The notes beneath the pieces are model-generated. The model was given only the letters and a program-made list of their open reading frames with translations, searched no databases and was not told where the DNA came from. A program made the position numbers and the translations under genes. Shown one piece after another: positions 185-47,470 of a DNA stretch of 64,000 bases. Source of the stretch: Clostridia bacterium (GTDB lineage: Bacteria; Bacillota; Clostridia; CAKSNL01; HGM11501); assembly GCA_045545475.1 (NCBI GenBank), contig JAZQAZ010000029.1, positions 1-64,000 of the forward strand, written 5' to 3'. The first letter of the stretch is position 1, and every line of letters begins with the position of its first letter.

Positions 185-2191
185 TTATATTTTACCTATC
201 AGGTAGCTTTGTTTTCCGTTTCTTAAGAAAATCGGTATTGATTCAATCGGTGCGTCAACCTCAACTGTTACACCGCCATCGTAAACACTTCCGTCACTTG
301 CGAAAGTCCATGTTGCACCTTCGGGCAAATATACACTGCGACTTCTTGCTTTTTCATAGCATACGGGCGCAACAAGTATATCTCCGCCAAACATATATTG
401 GTCCTTAATTTCCCAAGCGTTTTTATCTTCCGGAAATTCATAGAACAGTCCACGAATAACAGGGCTTCCTTTTTCGTGTGCTTCCTTCATTAAAGACCTT
501 GTGTAATCACGCATCAATTCTCGGATATCAATGAATTTGCACATAATTTTGCAGTTTTCCTCGCCATAGCTCCAAACTTCATTATCTGCACCTGTAGGTT
601 CACGATATTCTCCCGCCTTATTTATTATATTCTTACGGGGAAGTCTTGAGCCGTGCATACGCATTACAGGTAAGAAAGTACCATATTGGAACCAGCGAAT
701 TAAAAGCTCCTTAAACTCTTCATCTTCAATATTTCCGCCTGCAAATCCGCCAATATCCGTTGTCCACCAGGGAATTCCGCTTAATCCCATATTAATGCCG
801 GCGCAAATCTGCTTTCTAAAATCAGTATAGCTTGAATGAATATCTCCCGACCATACCAAAGCACCATATCGCTGACTTCCCACCCATGCACATCTGCACA
901 GGCTGACAACATCTTTAACGCCTTCTTTTTGCAATCCCTCATAAAACAATCTTTCAAACTCTCTCGGGAATACATTTCCGATTTCCGATACCGTTCCCAT
1001 ATGATATCTGTAGCACTCATAATCGTATGGAATAAATTCCGGCTCCGCTTCATCCAGCCAGAAATTTTCTATTCCTAAATTAAAATAATTTTCCTTACAT
1101 TTTTCCCATACGTACTCACGGGTGGCAGGATTTGTTGGGTCAAGAAACACATTGTTTCCATGGAAAATCATCTGAACATCAACGCCGGAATTACTTTTCA
1201 CAAGCAATCCCTTATGCTTCATTTCCGCATAATTTACACTTCTCGAATCAACCTGAGGCCAGAAGGAAACCATAGGCTGTATGCCCATTTCTTTAAGTTC
1301 TTTTACCATAGATAAAGGATCGGGGAAAAACTCTTTATCAAACTTAAAATCGCCGCATCTCAGCCAATGATAGTAGTCAATAACCAGTACATCAAGAGGA
1401 ATGTTTCTTTTTTTGTATTCTCTTGCAATTTTCAAAACCTCTTCCTGATTATAATAACGAAGCTTGCACTGCCAGTATCCCAAACCATATTCCGGCATCA
1501 TAGGCACCGTACCTGTGGCTTTTGCATAACTTTCAAGAATTTCAGAAGGCGTATCTCCCGCTGTTATCCAATAGTCAAGTTGCTTTGTTGTTTCCGCAAT
1601 CCACTGGGTCGTATTTACTCCAAAATGAACCTCGCCTATTGCCGCATTATGCCACAAAAAGCCATAGCCTTTGCTTGAAATATAAAACGGAATACTTGCC
1701 TGTGAATTTCTGTGAGCAAGTTCAAGATTACATCCTTTTAAGTTTAAGATGTTATGCTGATACTGCCCCATACCATATATTTTTTCTTCTGCATCTGACT
1801 CAAATGTTTGTTTTATCTTATATAAATCTCCTGCAACAGTTTTATATTGTCTTGGTCTTTTGTGAAGTGCTCCGCCACATGAAATATCCCGAAGCAAAAC
1901 TTCACCCTTTTTATTTTTATATTCAATTTGAACCGTATCCCCGCAATACAAATCCTCTATTACGCTTAAGCTTGCAATAATATTTCCGTTTTCAATGGAT
2001 GCGCATTTTTCTTCTATTACAATATTTGTATCAGTATATTCCGCTTCTAAAAGAGCAATTTCCCCTTCTTTAATACCTCCGAAAAAAGAGGCACGGGTTC
2101 TAAAACTGTTTTTTCCCCAGGGTCTTAATTCAACTACTTCGCCATTGCCTGTAAAAACAAGTGAATTATCTTTTTTACTGAAGTATCCCAT
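185..2191 (-). CDS. GH31 alpha-xylosidase
   Basis: IYGMGQ, GYWQCKLRY, FWLDEAEPE (nucleophile), WSGDI, TTDIGGF motifs; in xylose operon. Confidence 0.9.
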   Translation of the reverse strand: MGYFSKKDNSLVFTGNGEVVELRPWGKNSFRTRASFFGGIKEGEIALLEAEYTDTNIVIEEKCASIENGNIIASLSVIEDLYCGDTVQIEYKNKKGEVLLRDISCGGALHKRPRQYKTVAGDLYKIKQTFESDAEEKIYGMGQYQHNILNLKGCNLELAHRNSQASIPFYISSKGYGFLWHNAAIGEVHFGVNTTQWIAETTKQLDYWITAGDTPSEILESYAKATGTVPMMPEYGLGYWQCKLRYYNQEEVLKIAREYKKRNIPLDVLVIDYYHWLRCGDFKFDKEFFPDPLSMVKELKEMGIQPMVSFWPQVDSRSVNYAEMKHKGLLVKSNSGVDVQMIFHGNNVFLDPTNPATREYVWEKCKENYFNLGIENFWLDEAEPEFIPYDYECYRYHMGTVSEIGNVFPREFERLFYEGLQKEGVKDVVSLCRCAWVGSQRYGALVWSGDIHSSYTDFRKQICAGINMGLSGIPWWTTDIGGFAGGNIEDEEFKELLIRWFQYGTFLPVMRMHGSRLPRKNIINKAGEYREPTGADNEVWSYGEENCKIMCKFIDIRELMRDYTRSLMKEAHEKGSPVIRGLFYEFPEDKNAWEIKDQYMFGGDILVAPVCYEKARSRSVYLPEGATWTFASDGSVYDGGVTVEVDAPIESIPIFLRNGKQSYLIGKI

Positions 2192-2232
2192 TTATTATCA
2201 CTCCGTTTCCGTATATGTTTTTCCTGATAAGC

Positions 2233-3549
2233 TTAATTAAACATCACATTATTAATAACACTTTCAAGATATTCCTGCCTGCCGCTTTGAGGTTCTATTG
2301 TACTTCCTAAGTTTTCAGCATAAGCTGCAAGTTCTTCGAGTGTTGTTCCGCTTAAAATCTTTTTACCGATTTCGGTATTTGTAAAGCTTTGGTATTTTTC
2401 CTTTACAAACTCTTCAATTCTGCCGTCTTCAATTAAAGCCGCCGCCTTGATAAGCCCAAGTGCAAAGGTATCCATAGCAAGAATAAATCCGTGGAACATA
2501 TCCTCATAGGTATTGCTAGGTCTGCGGTTTTTAGCATCAAAGTTGAAACCGCCCGTAAGTCCGCCTGCTTTAAGAACCTCGTACATACAGAAAGTTGCAC
2601 TATATACGTCCGACGGAAATTCATCGGTGTCCCAGCCAAGAAGCATATCTCCCTGGTTAGCATCAATGGAGCCAAGCATTCCGTTGATTGCAGAAACCCT
2701 TAATTCGTGCTGGAATGTATGTCCTGCAAGTGTTGCGTGGTTTGCTTCAATATTCATCTTAAAGTCTTTATCAAGACCGTGTGCTTTTAAGAATCCGATT
2801 GCTGTTGCCGCATCAAAATCATACTGATGCTTCATCGGCTCCTTCGGCTTGGGTTCAATATAGAAATCGCCATTAAATCCGATAGAACGGCCATATTCAA
2901 CCGCCATCTTCATAAGTCTTGCAATGTTTTCCTGCTCAAACTTCATATCTGTATTGAGAAGTGTTTCATAGCCTTCTCTTCCGCCCCAGAACACATATCC
3001 TCTTCCGCCAAGTTTTACTGTAAGCTCCAGTGCCTTTTTAACCTGGGAAGCCGCAAAACAAAATACTTCTGCGGAATTTGTACTTCCTGCTCCATTCATA
3101 AATCTGGGGTTTGAAAACATATTCGCCGTACCCCAAAGGCACTTAATGTTTGTACCTTCCATTTTTTCCAATATGTAGTCTGTAATTTCATCCAGTCTTT
3201 TGTTTGTTTCCTTGATATCCTCAGCCTCGGGCACAAGGTCAACATCGTGAAAGCAGAAATATTCAATACCCAATTTCTTCATAAATTCAAAACCGGCATC
3301 TACTTTTGCTTTCGCATGAGCCATAGTCCCTTTTTCCGAGCCAAATGATTTATCGGCGGTGTCTCTGCCGAACATATCTGTACCTGCCGCACAGAGGTTA
3401 TGCCACCAAGCCATTGCAAAGGGCAAATGTTCTTTCATAGTTTTGCCCATAATAACTCTGTCTGCATCATAATACTTAAATGCAAAAGGATTTTTGCTGT
3501 CCTTACCTTCATATTTAATCTGTGGAATGTTTGAAAAAATCTCTTTCAT
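2233..3549 (-). CDS. xylA: xylose isomerase (class II)
   Basis: [49 protein letters not shown]. Confidence 0.97.
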
Positions 3550-3561
3550 TTCTCTTTCCTC

Positions 3562-5040
3562 CTATATCAGTTCTTTATATAATTCTTTTATTGTCGGATA
3601 TATTTTTTTGTACTTGCGGTAAGATGCTTCGTATCTTTCCGCTATTTTTGCATCAGGCTTTATTTTTTCCTTCTTTGTTACCAGTTTTTCGGCACATTCT
3701 GTAACAGATTTATACTCTCCCAAAGCAACCATGGCAAGCATTGCCGCTCCAAGCCCCGGCCCTTCCTCAACAGCGGGAACTTCAAGTGTAACTCCAAGAA
3801 CGTTTGCAATAATCTTTTTCCACAGTTTTGATTTTGCTCCTCCGCCGCAGATTGTACTTACCTTTACATCTATTCCAAGATTTTTTACAATTTCGAGGTT
3901 GTCACGAAAGGCAAAGGCAACTCCTTCCAAAATCGCCTGTACCATATCCTGACGTGTTGTATCAGGAGTCATTCCGATAAACAGTCCTCTTGCATCGGTG
4001 TCATTGATAGGACTTCTTTCACCCATCAGATACGGCAAAAAGTATATGCGGTTTTTTCCTAAATCTTCGTCTGTAATGTCCATCTGTTCTCCGTTGTAAT
4101 CATCGCTCTTTAGAATTTCTTCATAGAACCATTTGTTGCAAGATGCCGCAGACAATATACAACCCATAAGATGATATCCGCCGTCCGAATGGCAGAAAGA
4201 ATGGAGAGCGTTAAACTTATCCACTCCGAACCTTTCGGATGAAATAAAGATTGTGCCCGATGTACCTAAGGATATATTGCATTTTCCATTTCCAACGGTT
4301 GCTGTGCCTATTGCCGCACCTGCGTTATCACCTGCACCTGCCGCAACTTTTACACCCTCTGAAAGGCCAAGCATCTTTGCTGTTTGCGGCAAAACTTCAC
4401 CGATGCATTCATAACTTTCATAAAGCTTTGGCAGTTGTTCTTCCTTTATGTTGCATATTTCAAGCATTTCTTTTGACCAGCATCTATTCTTTACATTAAG
4501 CAAAAGCATTCCCGATGCATCTGAATAGTCTGTCGAAAATACACCGGTGAGACGATATGCTATATAGTCTTTCGGAAGCATTATTTTTGAAATCTTACAG
4601 AAGTTTTCTTTCTCGTTATTTAAAAGCCATAAAATTTTGGGTGCCGTAAAACCTGCAAAAGCAATATTTGCGGTATAATCGGACAATTTTTGTTTACCCA
4701 CTACCGTATTAAGATACTCGGTTTCTTTATTGGTTCTGCCGTCGTTCCAAAGTATTGCCGGACGAATAACTTTATCATTTTCATCCAATATCACAAGTCC
4801 GTGCATCTGACCTGCTACAGAAAGACCTTTTACAGTTTTCGCATCAAAGCCTGCGAGTAATTCTCCAATACCGCTGACAAATGCATCCCACCAGTCCTCA
4901 GGATTTTGCTCACTCCAGCCGGGGTTAGGATAATACACATCATAATTTTTAGTAACCGAGTTTAATATTTCACCACACGCATCAACAAGCAAAAGTTTTA
5001 AGCCTGATGTGCCAAGGTCTGCACCTATGTATAAATTCAT
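3562..5040 (-). CDS. xylB: xylulokinase
   Basis: IGADLGTSGLK, GQMHG, ILWNDGRT, PYLMGERSP; start placed at MNLYIG behind GGAGG. Confidence 0.95.
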   Translation of the reverse strand: MNLYIGADLGTSGLKLLLVDACGEILNSVTKNYDVYYPNPGWSEQNPEDWWDAFVSGIGELLAGFDAKTVKGLSVAGQMHGLVILDENDKVIRPAILWNDGRTNKETEYLNTVVGKQKLSDYTANIAFAGFTAPKILWLLNNEKENFCKISKIMLPKDYIAYRLTGVFSTDYSDASGMLLLNVKNRCWSKEMLEICNIKEEQLPKLYESYECIGEVLPQTAKMLGLSEGVKVAAGAGDNAGAAIGTATVGNGKCNISLGTSGTIFISSERFGVDKFNALHSFCHSDGGYHLMGCILSAASCNKWFYEEILKSDDYNGEQMDITDEDLGKNRIYFLPYLMGERSPINDTDARGLFIGMTPDTTRQDMVQAILEGVAFAFRDNLEIVKNLGIDVKVSTICGGGAKSKLWKKIIANVLGVTLEVPAVEEGPGLGAAMLAMVALGEYKSVTECAEKLVTKKEKIKPDAKIAERYEASYRKYKKIYPTIKELYKELI

Positions 5041-43964: not shown

Positions 43965-44198
43965 GAGGAGATGTTAAAAAAGTTCAGACCGCAAAAAGGC
44001 AAATAAATTGATGACTCTTACTCCTTGCTTATCAAAGTTATTAAAATAGTGTTGAAAAATCGCATTTCTGCGATTTTTCTTCATTTTACGCCTTTTTGCT
44101 ACGAACAAACTTCACCCTCAATGTATCTCATACATTTTCGGGCGGTGCAGTTTGTCCGTTCTGAAGCATTTTTTCCTATCTCCTGATATTAAATTGAT

Positions 44199-44258
44199 GT
44201 AGGGGCCGGTGCCCACATCAGCCCGCATTTTCCGGGTCGATGTGGCATCGACCCCTGC
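44199..44258. repeat. GTAG-type REP doublet (REPIN)
   Basis: GTAGGGGCCGGTGCCCACATCAGCCCG - spacer - CGGGTCGATGTGGCATCGACCCCTGC (inverted pair). Confidence 0.7.
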
Positions 44259-44274
44259 ATTTTTCAAAAACATC

Positions 44275-44324
44275 TTGACATTTGTAGCTACACGTGATAT
44301 ACTACGATTGTAGCTACAAGTGTA
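44275..44324 (+). promoter_or_regulatory. sigmaA promoter overlapped by BlaI/CopY-type boxes
   Basis: TTGACA-17-TATACT with extended TG; TACA-AG-TGTA (44315-44324) plus three degenerate copies. Confidence 0.85.
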
Positions 44325-44360
44325 ATTACACTTACAATTAATCCCCAAGGAGGCAAAAAA

Positions 44361-44732
44361 ATGTCAAACATAAAGCAAACAATTACGGATTCCGAGTATC
44401 AGATTATGAAAATTTTGTGGGATGCAAATGAGAAAATGACCGTATCTGACGTATCGGCAAAGCTTGACGGCAACGACTGGACGGCATCCACAGTTTCCAC
44501 CTTTCTTCAGAGGCTATTGAAAAAAGAAGTGGTTGCCTGCGATAAAAGAGGCAAAACCAACCTTTATTACCCCGTTTTATCCCGGAAGGACTACGATTTA
44601 AGCGAAACGGAAAGCTTTCTTTCCAAAATTTACAAGGGCTCAATCAAAAATATGGTTGCGGCACTTTACGAAAACAAAAAGCTTTCGGATGATGACGTGA
44701 CAGACCTTAAGAAGATGTTTGAACTGGAGTGA
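44361..44732 (+). CDS. BlaI/MecI/CopY family repressor
   Basis: ITDSEYQIMKILW, W..STVSTFLQRLLKK, YYP, GSIKNMVAAL. Confidence 0.93.
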   Translation: MSNIKQTITDSEYQIMKILWDANEKMTVSDVSAKLDGNDWTASTVSTFLQRLLKKEVVACDKRGKTNLYYPVLSRKDYDLSETESFLSKIYKGSIKNMVAALYENKKLSDDDVTDLKKMFELE

Positions 44733-44736
44733 TTTT

Positions 44737-45564
44737 ATGGCAGAGCTTTTTAAGACAACCCTTGTTTTAAGCATTTTTGGTTTTGTTATGACGGCACTGC
44801 TTCTTATCATAAAGCCCGTGACGGCAAAAAAACTTCCGGCATCTTGGCAATATTATATGTGGGTTCTGGTTGTGCTTTCAATGCTTATTCCCGTTTATAA
44901 AATTATCCCTTCAAGGGAAATTTATAAAATTCCTGTTGTTCCGTCTGTCACAACCGAATCTCCCTCCACGCCTGACATAAGCGAAAACGTTGAAGTATTA
45001 CCGGCGGAAGACACGGTAAAGGAAAATGCAGGCACACCCGTAAGGCAAAGCAGGACGGGGCTTTACACCATTGCCGCTTTTATCTGGCTTTCGGGAATGG
45101 CAATATATCTTTTCATAGTTTCTTTAAGCTATATTTCCTTCACCACGAAAAAGCGGAAAAATTCCATTCCCTTAAGGGATGATGCGATATTGAATGAATG
45201 CTCAAAATCCCTTAAAATAAAGCGGAAAATCAAGGTTATGGTTTCGGAAAATTTAGATTCTCCCATGCTTGTGGGCGTGTTTTTCCCGGTAATTTATATC
45301 CCTGACGGGGAAATTCCTCCCGAAAAGCTTAAAATGATTTTCCTTCACGAGCTTAACCACTATAAAAGGAAGGATTTAATTTTCAAGTGGCTTTCTGTCT
45401 TAACCAATATGATACATTGGTTTAATCCCCTTTCCTATCTTTTATGCTCCGCTTTAAGCGAAGCCTGTGAAATTTCCTGCGATATGGCTGTAACCAGAAA
45501 TATGACGGAGGATGAGCAAAGACTTTATATGCAGACGATTTTAGACCTTGCAAAAAGGAGGTAA
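44737..45564 (+). CDS. M56 (BlaR1-type) metallopeptidase lacking last TM and sensor domain
   Basis: SPMLVG, HELNH, HWFNPL, EISCD; ends at YMQTILDLAKRR. Confidence 0.92.
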   Translation: MAELFKTTLVLSIFGFVMTALLLIIKPVTAKKLPASWQYYMWVLVVLSMLIPVYKIIPSREIYKIPVVPSVTTESPSTPDISENVEVLPAEDTVKENAGTPVRQSRTGLYTIAAFIWLSGMAIYLFIVSLSYISFTTKKRKNSIPLRDDAILNECSKSLKIKRKIKVMVSENLDSPMLVGVFFPVIYIPDGEIPPEKLKMIFLHELNHYKRKDLIFKWLSVLTNMIHWFNPLSYLLCSALSEACEISCDMAVTRNMTEDEQRLYMQTILDLAKRR

Positions 45565-45566
45565 CT

Positions 45567-46664
45567 ATGCTGGAAAAATTATACTCAACCAAAATGAGCG
45601 AAGACAGAAAAAGCCTTCAGAGGCGTTTTTCAAAAATCCGCAAAAAGAGCGGAAAGACTTCTAAAATAATTGCCGTAATTCTTTCGGCGGTTTTGATTAT
45701 TGCCGTTTTAACCGTTTCCTCCATAGTAGGCTCACGCCTTGGCGTCCGCGATTACTCTCTTTCGGATGCCGAATATTCCGCCTTGCTTGAAAGTCGGCTC
45801 GGTGCGGTTATGGCGGACATATATTATGCCGACAGACAAAAGATTTTAGTTCATTACGGCTCCGCCCTTTTTATTCTCGGCACCAATCCGCCACCCGAAA
45901 ACCCTATGCTTTCTTCCGAATTTGATTTTGTGATAAATCTTGAAAAGCTTAACATATCAAAAAATCAGCAGGGAAGCAACATTCTTGAAGTAAAAGTGGA
46001 TAAGGACGGTAAAAACGCCTATCTTTATTCCGTTGGACCCATCGATGAAATAAAGGGCTTTGACGAATATATCTTAAGCCTTGAAACGGGAAGCGTGAAA
46101 AAAGGCAGTGCGCCCAAAGATGCCGAATATTTCAGTGGCCGTGCAGACAGCTCCACTACCCTATTAAATCCTTTCGGATGGTTCAGCAACACCTCAGTTA
46201 TAGACGGCGATAAAATTTACTACCTCACCTGCGAAAACGGAAAGGCAGAGGGAATTCAGCTTGTTACGGTAAATCATCTTACGGGGGAAACCTCGTCACG
46301 GTTTATCTTCAATCCCGCATCAGCCGATATTAGCTTTTTCGAACCGAAGGATATAAAGGATATTACGGAAGCCCGCCTTATTTCAGGGGACATTGACATT
46401 GTCATAAAAAACGAAGTCAAGCTTTCCGAAATAGAAGAAATGCTTTCTTCGGCTGAAATTATCTATGGCGGTACGGCGTGCTCCTTTACCGCAGATCTGA
46501 TACTGAAAAGAGCCGACGGTGCTTCCGGTAAGGTTACCCTTGCCACGGATAGCTGTGCCGTATATAAATGCGGCAGCACCTATTATGATTACAGCGATGG
46601 TGACAACACCCGTATGTTTGACCTCCTCGGGGTAACCCACGAATGGATTTTAAAAGCATATTAA
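45567..46664 (+). CDS. putative BlaR1 C-terminal sensor subunit 1
   Basis: MLEKLYSTKMS..KSLQRRFSKI + one TM + large extracellular region; RBS AGGAGG overlaps the M56 3' end. Confidence 0.7.
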   Translation: MLEKLYSTKMSEDRKSLQRRFSKIRKKSGKTSKIIAVILSAVLIIAVLTVSSIVGSRLGVRDYSLSDAEYSALLESRLGAVMADIYYADRQKILVHYGSALFILGTNPPPENPMLSSEFDFVINLEKLNISKNQQGSNILEVKVDKDGKNAYLYSVGPIDEIKGFDEYILSLETGSVKKGSAPKDAEYFSGRADSSTTLLNPFGWFSNTSVIDGDKIYYLTCENGKAEGIQLVTVNHLTGETSSRFIFNPASADISFFEPKDIKDITEARLISGDIDIVIKNEVKLSEIEEMLSSAEIIYGGTACSFTADLILKRADGASGKVTLATDSCAVYKCGSTYYDYSDGDNTRMFDLLGVTHEWILKAY

Positions 46665-46712
46665 GCCGATGGGCGTCTGACCCCACAAGGCTTATGATTA
46701 AAGGAGGCAACT

Positions 46713-47435
46713 ATGTTAGAAAAATTATACACCACAAAAATGAGTGACGATAAAAAGGTTTTAAAGAGGAGGTTTTCAAAAATCAGCCGGAAAAACGGAA
46801 AGACTTCCAAAATAATTTCTGCGTTAACAGCGCTTTTACTTTCGATAACGCTTCTTTCGGGCTATGCCGTCATGGCTGTTTTAGACCCCAGCGAGGAAAT
46901 CAAGGAAGAATATGCCCTTTCCCTTATAGACTATGAAATTTTAAGGGGCTATCCCGACGGAAAAATGCGACTTGATGAGCCGATAACCAATGCAGAAGCG
47001 ATTACTCTTATACTTCGTGCCCACAAAGGCTACAGGGATATGCTCGAAACTTACATCCCAAAAGATGAAAGCGAAAATCACTGGGCATATAAGGAAATTG
47101 CCCTTGCAAAGGATTTGAAAATTGCAGAAAGCGACATAGTGCCGGATGAAATTATTACGGTATCTGGCTTTTCAAAGATGCTCGTTCTTCTTTTAGGCTA
47201 TGGCGTAAAGGCGGAGCAACGTGGCGGAGATTATGTTTCCGTTGCAAAAAGGCTCGGCATTTTTGAAGGACTTGATAAAAATGCCGGAGATATTTTAACA
47301 AGAAAAGATGCCGCATTGATGCTGTCAAACGCCCTTGACGTGCCCTTTATGGAAGCTTCTTCCTATAATGCAGAAATAAAAACTTTAGAGTATGTAATTA
47401 AAGAGGGCAATACCTTAAGAAGTCTTCTCGATTAA
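46713..47435 (+). CDS. putative BlaR1 C-terminal subunit 2 with SLH-like domains
   Basis: MLEKLYTTKMS..KVLKRRFSKI + TM + LRGYPDG..RLDEPITNAEA, HWAYKEI, LTRKDAALML. Confidence 0.75.
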   Translation: MLEKLYTTKMSDDKKVLKRRFSKISRKNGKTSKIISALTALLLSITLLSGYAVMAVLDPSEEIKEEYALSLIDYEILRGYPDGKMRLDEPITNAEAITLILRAHKGYRDMLETYIPKDESENHWAYKEIALAKDLKIAESDIVPDEIITVSGFSKMLVLLLGYGVKAEQRGGDYVSVAKRLGIFEGLDKNAGDILTRKDAALMLSNALDVPFMEASSYNAEIKTLEYVIKEGNTLRSLLD

Positions 47436-47439
47436 CGAA

Positions 47440-47470
47440 AAAACACATCATCCGACGGATGATGTGTTTT
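47440..47470. terminator. bidirectional terminator closing the bla-like operon
   Basis: AAAACACATCATCCG-A-CGGATGATGTGTTTT. Confidence 0.75.

Follow-up and report, generated by a model that had tools for sequence, protein, structure and literature searches.

The first 64,000 nucleotides of contig JAZQAZ010000029.1 of a gut Clostridia bacterium (GenBank assembly GCA_045545475.1, forward strand), referred to here as the window, carry at 44275-47470 on the plus strand one compact unit made up of a promoter, a gene for a BlaI-type repressor, a gene for an M56-family membrane protease, two further open reading frames (ORFs), ORF-A and ORF-B, and a terminator (Table 1). A first reading of the letters alone, called here the original prediction, had described the operon in this order, and it is present as described. 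It had also proposed that the segment which follows the protease core in the β-lactam receptor BlaR1 has moved onto separately encoded sensors; as an account of the architecture, this is now backed by homology, synteny and phylogeny. The repressor gene ends 4 nucleotides before the ATG of the M56 gene, and 48 nucleotides separate ORF-A from ORF-B. In the whole genome (2.74 Mb, 95% complete) there is a single M56 gene, and the N-terminal module discussed below occurs in exactly two genes.

Table 1. Features of the operon and its immediate surroundings in the window (aa, amino acids; nt, nucleotides; bp, base pairs)
Feature	Position	Strand	Description
Promoter-like site	44275-44303	+	TTGACA-17 nt-TATACT; 11/12 matches, TG ahead of the -10
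Likely BlaI operators, two copies of TTGTAGCTACAMGTG	44282-44296, 44308-44322	+	palindrome TGTAGCTACA inside each; promoter overlapped
blaI-type winged-helix repressor, 123 aa	44361-44732	+	PF03965, E 1e-32, residues 8-120
Truncated M56 protease subunit, 275 aa	ATG 44737, TAA 45562-45564	+	PF05569, E 8e-54
Junction	45556-45569	+	AGGAGG inside last M56 codons, TAA 45562-45564, 2 nt, ORF-A ATG in other frame
ORF-A, putative sensor subunit 1, 365 aa	45567-46664	+	
ORF-A N-terminal module, residues 1-58	45567-45740	+	loop equivalent, R20-F21 helix, basic stretch, membrane helix
Second AGGAGG-5 nt-ATG start region	46702-46715	+	precedes ORF-B
ORF-B, putative sensor subunit 2, 240 aa	46713-47435	+	module 1-58, then short ectodomain with one weak SLH-like motif
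Terminator-like hairpin	47440-47470	+	14-bp stem, then T-rich tail
Upstream ORF, 618 aa	42108-43964		
Upstream terminator-like hairpins	44054-44079, 44234-44254		between the 618-aa ORF and the operon promoter
SLH-repeat protein, 453 aa	47479-48840	-	two clear SLH repeats, E 3.6e-20; converges on the operon terminator

The M56 protein, which ends in ...YMQTILDLAKRR, consists of the membrane helices that precede the protease and the gluzincin core, with its HExxH (H204-H208) and ExxxD (E245-D249) motifs. Its match to PF05569 takes in only profile positions 3-267 of 296, so that positions 268-296, including the arginine helix, are missing, and it aligns to residues 4-268 of Staphylococcus aureus BlaR1 (E 2.4e-10), its stop coinciding with the end of BlaR1 helix alpha8 (residue 268). 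Together these alignments bear out the earlier claim that the protein stops right after its protease core. The NCBIfam models for BlaR1/MecR1 match the M56 part only, below their cut-offs, and the single polypeptide that joins core, alpha9, last membrane helix and sensor elsewhere in the BlaI/BlaR1 family is absent from the window. The M56 gene is not broken, and H204, E205, H208, E245, D249 and Y264 do not vary among 28 split M56 proteins, which share 34-89% identity with the one in the window.

According to the account in the S. aureus structure paper (PMC9834060), the autocleavage loop of BlaR1 (residues 271-289) lies between alpha8 and the swapped helix alpha9, autocleavage occurs at the Ser283-Phe284 bond, and Arg294' on the swapped alpha9' is salt-bridged to Asp246, the aspartate of ExxxD, and counts as part of the active site. 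The counterpart of this segment is found at the start of both downstream genes. Residues 1-58 of ORF-B are the same module as in ORF-A, where the loop equivalent reads Y6-S-T-K9-M10 with the putative bond between K9 and M10. The two proteins are 77% identical over residues 1-35, 13% in the membrane helix and ~24% (background) in the ectodomains, much as the original prediction had it when it described a common module of ~35 residues followed by divergence. M1, T8, M10, R20 and F21 are invariant in 28 cognate modules, and S11, L17, K23 and I24 nearly so. The exact motif opens 62 of 71 ORF-A homologues, the others being five one-letter variants, two proteins that are shorter N-terminally and two without the motif; despite this conservation, the ectodomains of the homologues are just ~45% identical to that of ORF-A.

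Fused relatives connect the module to BlaR1. A genome of the same genus (G005) encodes two fused M56 proteins of 626 and 617 residues, in which the PF05569 match runs from 3 to 296 and ends in ...LKRRFIMI. Their internal segment ...LPLTTQMASSKKFLKRRFIMIKNKKTTSRF and the membrane helix after it match residues 1-60 of ORF-A and ORF-B column for column in the alignment. The G005 fused protein in turn aligns to BlaR1 (8EXP, 8EXS) at E 2e-14, placing TTQ on H282-S283, the following M on F284, L on L280 and KRR on K292-R293-R294, and the post-protease segment of the fused relatives aligns to BlaR1 residues ~275-330. Carried over to ORF-A, this mapping would make Y6 the P4 residue, T8 P2, K9 P1 and M10 P1', with R20 in the place of Arg294. 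The predicted alignment between the module and the post-protease segment of BlaR1 is thus obtained by way of the fused M56 relatives. A further suggestion, that the autocleavage site lies within the basic motif, holds only in part: the segment is present in the module, but the Ser283-Phe284 cut falls ~10 residues before KRR, and Arg294 is an active-site residue. Since the equivalent of Arg294 belongs to the active site, the module would be part of the protease fold and not only a docking tag.

Placed in an alignment of fused relatives, the end of M56 and the beginning of the module together span the fused linker, the distance from TILDL to YSTKM being 9 residues in the window and 10 in the fused form. 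Set beside the BlaR1 mapping, this shows that the gene was severed within the autocleavage loop, ~9 residues ahead of where the scissile bond would lie. Judging from the sequences, each of the two downstream genes supplies the arginine helix and the last membrane helix that are missing from the protease gene.

The layout of the junction is that of genes with independent starts. AGGAGG stands 5 nucleotides ahead of the ATG of both ORF-A and ORF-B, in near-identical start strings (AAAGGAGG(T/C)AACTATG), which agrees with the prediction of a separate ribosome-binding site and start for each; the frame of ORF-A does differ from that of M56, its ATG lying 2 nucleotides past the stop, so that no simple nonsense mutation is involved. 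Confirmation of positions 45560-45570 in reads had been proposed as a check, and three DNA runs, each from a different study, have contigs that cross these positions at ~96% identity to the window, with no fusing indel listed there; the sole indel listed in these contigs is at 47454. The junction is no assembly error, and the split is real. Another genome of the genus (G002, locus L090) has the identical order of blaI, M56, an ORF-A-like and an ORF-B-like gene, and the ORF-A-like and ORF-B-like pair also occurs in G003 and G010. Contigs from a metatranscriptome run, in which DNA carry-over is possible, cover parts of M56, ORF-A and ORF-B, and none of their listed pieces bridges a gene junction of the window operon.

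Some contigs deviate from the window elsewhere. One from an RNA run has the 43-nucleotide ORF-A/ORF-B spacer (46658-46702) replaced by 7 other letters, DNA contigs of two runs diverge past 46036, and the match of one short contig is limited to the beginning of the ORF-B module (46710-46746), other sequence flanking it on either side. These are probably strain variants or other module genes of the community.

The arrangement recurs widely. A 60-position profile of the module, searched against 1.84 billion cluster representatives, matched 307 of them at E<=1e-3 and 122 at E<=1e-10. Among the best 150 of the 307, the module lies within the first 30 residues in 119 (32-708 residues long, some of them fragments), at ~267-289 in 30 fused M56 proteins of 455-829 residues, and at residue 122 in one. 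None of the 97 N-terminal-module representatives of at least 190 residues in this best 150 contains PF05569. A known outer domain was found in 40 of these 97 and not in the other 57; the domains are Cu_amine_oxidN1 (27), Peptidase_M23 (15), DUF4829 (3), DUF4825 (2), Big_14 (2), DUF5050 (1) and LytR_cpsA_psr (1). Fused or split, the module was matched in 55 of 400 sampled genomes of the class, representing 37 of 217 genera.

Linkage to truncated M56 genes, which the original prediction had proposed to look for together with paralogs of the module, was followed at 42 places (40 regions chosen from module matches, locus L018 and the window), whose stop-to-stop frames were scored with local profiles for BlaI, the M56 core and the module. 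A full truncated M56 followed by module genes was found at 30 of the 42, a count that is no prevalence, the places having been picked from module matches with short open frames favoured; one module gene follows in 13 loci, two in 12 and three in five. The remaining 12 places comprise three in which a module gene follows an incomplete M56 (two of them at contig starts), one module gene at a contig end, one blaI and module gene without M56, and seven with fused forms only. The 30 split loci come from 28 genomes and 11 families, and in 29 of them the module gene starts between -31 and +17 nucleotides from the M56 stop. A length-limited search for M56 relatives returned 352 at E<=1e-20, of which the best 120 are all 272-283 residues long, and where sources give short M56 relatives a name it is 'M56 family metallopeptidase' or 'hypothetical protein'. 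The split clade can be recognised by an M56 protein of ~272-283 residues followed within ~20 nucleotides by one or more genes that start M(L/F)E(N/K)xYTT(K/Q)MS...RF...membrane helix, and the window is one of the 30 loci with this arrangement. The split design is old and common.

In a quick-search maximum-likelihood tree built from 30 split and 37 fused M56 cores (67 in all), 29 of the 30 split cores fall in one clade with a long stem and a Shimodaira-Hasegawa-like approximate likelihood-ratio test (SH-aLRT) support of 99, and the M56 of the window lies inside it. The tree suggests that the split arose essentially once, then spread and diversified. Pairs of sensor genes within a locus (n=27) are 78% identical over residues 1-35, 50% in the membrane helix and 22% (background) in the ectodomain, while pairs between loci (n=1509) are 59% identical over residues 1-35 and 28% in the membrane helix. 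The 62 ectodomains fall into 11 clusters that occur in varying combinations: depending on the locus, the ORF-A type is accompanied by one or another of six partner types, and the largest cluster includes both fused and split forms. The picture these comparisons suggest is of a shared docking and active-site module that would be kept matched to the local protease while the outer domains are exchanged.

Individual loci show further variation. At L073 (G096:C65:34000-40500; 1851-3502, minus strand), a blaI of 123 residues is followed after 131 nucleotides by a module gene of 382 residues with no M56 beside it; the same genome also holds a complete split locus (L062), and the sensor of L073 is possibly an orphan served by a protease encoded elsewhere. 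In L052 (G314:C2:46500-58500), a fused blaI-M56 system (656-residue frame) adjoins a split M56 and three module genes on one strand. Two genomes have two separate split loci each, L065 and L081 in G125 and L066 and L070 in G395, so a cell can hold two truncated M56 proteases, for which cross-talk or specificity of the modules would matter. At L079 (G113:C11:11000-17000; 2629-4236) the M56 match begins only at profile position 117, in a 166-residue frame, and the next gene at module position 13, possibly a decaying copy. The third module gene of L053 (G101:C5; 6475-7644) lies ~1.2 kb from the second. In L018 (G048:C14; 281-2002, minus strand), 15 nucleotides past the second sensor gene, there is a 573-residue protein with SLH repeats and PBP_like_2, which might belong to the operon as a further member or serve that species as an output gene.

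The outer domains of ORF-A and ORF-B differ. ORF-A matches no family in Pfam or NCBIfam. Its AlphaFold2 model has a mean predicted local distance difference test score (pLDDT) of 79.7; Foldseek against the PDB returns beta-propellers at template-modelling (TM) scores of 0.1-0.2, and VIA-align gives propeller-like matches for residues 73-250 and, for residues 258-357, the small Clostridia structural-genomics proteins 4q0y, 2mct and 4r7r, at Z 6-7.7, every one of them under the caution line of Z 8. On the model, which is of good confidence in itself, residues 73-250 look like part of a beta-propeller and residues 258-357 like a small alpha/beta domain; with matches this weak, neither fold nor ligand is assigned. 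ORF-B had been described as carrying SLH repeats, which are only weakly supported: PF00395, a family that usually occurs as three repeats, matches it once and partially, at residues 66-96, where the score of 22.3 bits is just above the cut-off of 20.8 and no single stretch passes by itself. SLH scores of its homologues are 21.8-28.4 bits. The homologues number only six, with 50-94% identity over the aligned length, so that this ectodomain is confined to close relatives, and the ORF-B model is poor, with a mean pLDDT of 53.9. By BLASTP, ORF-B shows no significant similarity to the neighbouring 453-residue SLH protein (E 0.23). The penicillin-binding domain PF00905 was matched in neither ORF-A nor ORF-B at E<=0.1.

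Upstream, the two terminator-like hairpins mark the operon as a separate transcription unit. The NCBIfam BlaI/CopY models match the repressor at scores under their cut-offs. Both TTGTAGCTACAMGTG copies are likely BlaI operators: their TGTAGCTACA palindromes overlap the -35/-10 site, giving the operon the palindromic operators in its own promoter that are a feature of the BlaI/BlaR1 family, and we take them to resemble the TACA/TGTA operators of BlaI. Exact copies are found nowhere else in the 2.74-Mb genome, and copies with two mismatches occur genome-wide only at the level of a reversed control pattern, from which no regulon emerged. On the evidence of its repressor, protease core, catalytic motifs and operators, the system can be placed in the BlaI/BlaR1 family, as a member without the single-polypeptide feature and without a penicillin-binding domain.

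Taken together, these observations make it probable that the operon encodes a BlaI/BlaR1-type proteolytic signalling system in which the receptor gene was split in evolution inside the autocleavage loop, and in which the sensor subunits complete the protease. How would such a receptor work? The 275-residue M56 protein would supply the membrane helices before the protease and the zinc-protease core, and ORF-A and ORF-B would each supply the strand of the autocleavage loop (Y6-S/T-T8-K9-M10 as P4-P1'), an alpha9-like helix, the last membrane helix and an outward domain. Each sensor would dock through its module onto the M56 core, probably in a 2:2 domain-swapped arrangement like that of BlaR1, and the docked Arg20 would complete the active site at Asp249, while sensor residues 6-10 would occupy the substrate groove and inhibit the enzyme as a pseudo-substrate. 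A signal received by the outer domain may then shift helix and strand so that BlaI enters and is cut, which would derepress the operon through the two BlaI-type operators in its own promoter. Complex prediction for M56 and the ORF-A module gave scores of 0.30 and 0.29 against a mark of 0.32, a level that speaks neither for nor against docking.

As the module is common and the ectodomains differ, one protease/repressor pair could read two inputs here and one to three in relatives, with sensors that would be interchangeable. Single-sensor loci indicate that one sensor is enough, and two or three are most likely alternative or additive inputs. In its fullest form, put forward tentatively as a serious possibility, this amounts to a natural 'pre-cleaved' BlaR1: the protease would be incomplete alone, any co-encoded sensor would donate the arginine helix and block the site with its N-terminal strand, several envelope signals would be integrated by subunit exchange, and sensor cassettes would move from locus to locus and might also serve proteases encoded elsewhere, as the sensor beside a blaI without M56 in G096 might do.

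Several points weigh against this account, the way in which the 42 places were picked among them. Searched by itself against solved structures, the module profile finds no BlaR1 match at E<=10, and the module alone finds no M56 match in Pfam, so that the link to BlaR1 alpha9 rests on the fused relatives as a bridge. The residue equivalent to P1 varies (K, Q, N, S, A, R), which makes cleavage at K9-M10 uncertain. In the tree, the split core of L083 stands outside the clade, on a long branch beside fused proteins with a support of 80, and may represent a second fission or a misplacement. There is, finally, no operator copy beyond the operon's own promoter, and the only visible output is the operon itself.

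Could ORF-A and ORF-B instead be obligate co-subunits of one receptor, one of each per dimer, reporting a single combined signal? By the description in PMC9834060, BlaR1 is a domain-swapped dimer in which alpha9 completes the active site of the partner, so that a complex has two module sites, and the ORF-A and ORF-B pair is kept in three genomes besides the window (G002, G003 and G010). An obligate pair is difficult to reconcile with the 13 of 30 split loci that have a single module gene and the five that have three, with the six partner types of the ORF-A ectodomain, or with the six homologues found for ORF-B against 71 in the ORF-A search (at E<=0.001). We regard this arrangement as unlikely.

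Somewhat less likely again is that the two proteins are mainly regulated products or substrates, that is, envelope proteins anchored in the membrane, with an N-terminal tail that M56 would cut or hold, giving feedback on their own abundance. An operator found solely at the operon's own promoter leaves no evident output gene except the operon, which fits 'sensors' as regulated products equally well; many module proteins have enzyme or wall-binding domains (the Peptidase_M23 and LytR_cpsA_psr cases among the 97 representatives, the weak SLH motif in ORF-B), and the module keeps a substrate-like strand. It also brings a conserved active-site arginine, however, which a mere substrate would not need, and the same ectodomain families occupy the sensor position of fused M56 proteins, with M23 and DUF4825 named among the fused architectures in PMC13492132. 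The product or substrate role and the sensor role are compatible and not mutually exclusive.

Sensor-less M56 homologues are discussed in PMC9834060 and PMC13492132, and an M56 that works alone, as proposed there for mycobacterial BlaR homologues, would leave ORF-A and ORF-B as unrelated proteins with only a common leader; this is very improbable here, given that the common stretch has its homologue inside fused M56 proteins, in their alpha9/last-helix segment, that the truncated M56 lacks the Pfam positions with the arginine helix, and that the two genes lie so closely spaced in 29 of 30 loci. The remaining reading holds that an ordinary fused blaR1-like gene, such as the one in G005, has become a pseudogene or only looks split through an assembly or frameshift artefact. 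It is rejected, with next to no probability left to it, by the bridging contigs, the same stop, ribosome-binding site and start layout in 30 loci, the invariant catalytic and module residues and the fact that one frameshift cannot yield two module genes.

A receptor split in evolution and, as proposed, completed by its sensors has clear points of contact with known systems. With S. aureus BlaR1/BlaI and MecR1/MecI (MEROPS M56; 8EXP-8EXT; PMC9834060, as described there), it shares the upstream BlaI-type repressor, the HExxH/ExxxD core, the palindromic promoter operators and the order of core, loop, arginine helix, last membrane helix and outer domain. After autocleavage BlaR1 itself is described as a two-chain complex held by the swapped helix (PMC9834060); here, by contrast, each chain has a gene of its own, with the break ~9 residues ahead of the position that matches the Ser283-Phe284 bond, and the one protease has two different C-terminal halves, neither with a penicillin-binding domain. 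Clostridioides difficile CenIR and the non-canonical BlaR-like proteins discussed with it (PMC13492132, J Bacteriol 2026) are likewise BlaIR-family proteins of Clostridia with outer domains that do not bind β-lactams, and M23 and DUF4825 are among the sensor domains of both sets. The survey in that paper sorts ~15,000 M56 proteins into 254 single-polypeptide architectures, and its section 12 makes no mention of receptors split over two or more genes. Closer at hand, the fused M56 relatives of the genus and class (G005; representatives P0088 and P0094) share the protease core, the TT(K/Q)M...LKRRF...membrane-helix segment and some ectodomain types (Cu_amine_oxidN1 and the largest cluster), but they are single polypeptides whose M56 cores lie outside the split clade. 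The sensor-less mycobacterial homologues, as described in PMC9834060 and PMC13492132, resemble the window operon in having an M56 gene without an outer sensor beside a blaI-type gene; they differ in that, going by these descriptions, they are not known to have a separate sensor that brings the missing helix, whereas here it is encoded directly downstream, twice. We found no description of a split M56 receptor in the literature searched, which included the 2026 M56 survey; subscription journals and supplements (such as Table S3 of PMC13492132) lay outside that search.

For the family, the discussion in PMC9834060 names the transfer of the signal across the membrane and the purpose of autocleavage as open questions of BlaR1. 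A widespread natural two-chain receptor that is broken just before the autocleavage site implies that covalent continuity there is dispensable, and it offers a genetically clean system for the roles of the loop, the arginine helix and outer-domain control, with halves that can be mixed, swapped and mutated as separate genes. For annotation, hundreds of gene pairs in gut Clostridia now listed as 'M56 family metallopeptidase' and 'hypothetical protein' would be the halves of one receptor. A one-component 'sensor-protease' can, on this evidence, turn into a multi-input hub with exchangeable sensors, by a logic comparable to that of branched two-component systems. In this operon, nature may offer both BlaR1 made as two chains and a form with several sensors of a system that has been seen as pairing each repressor with one receptor.

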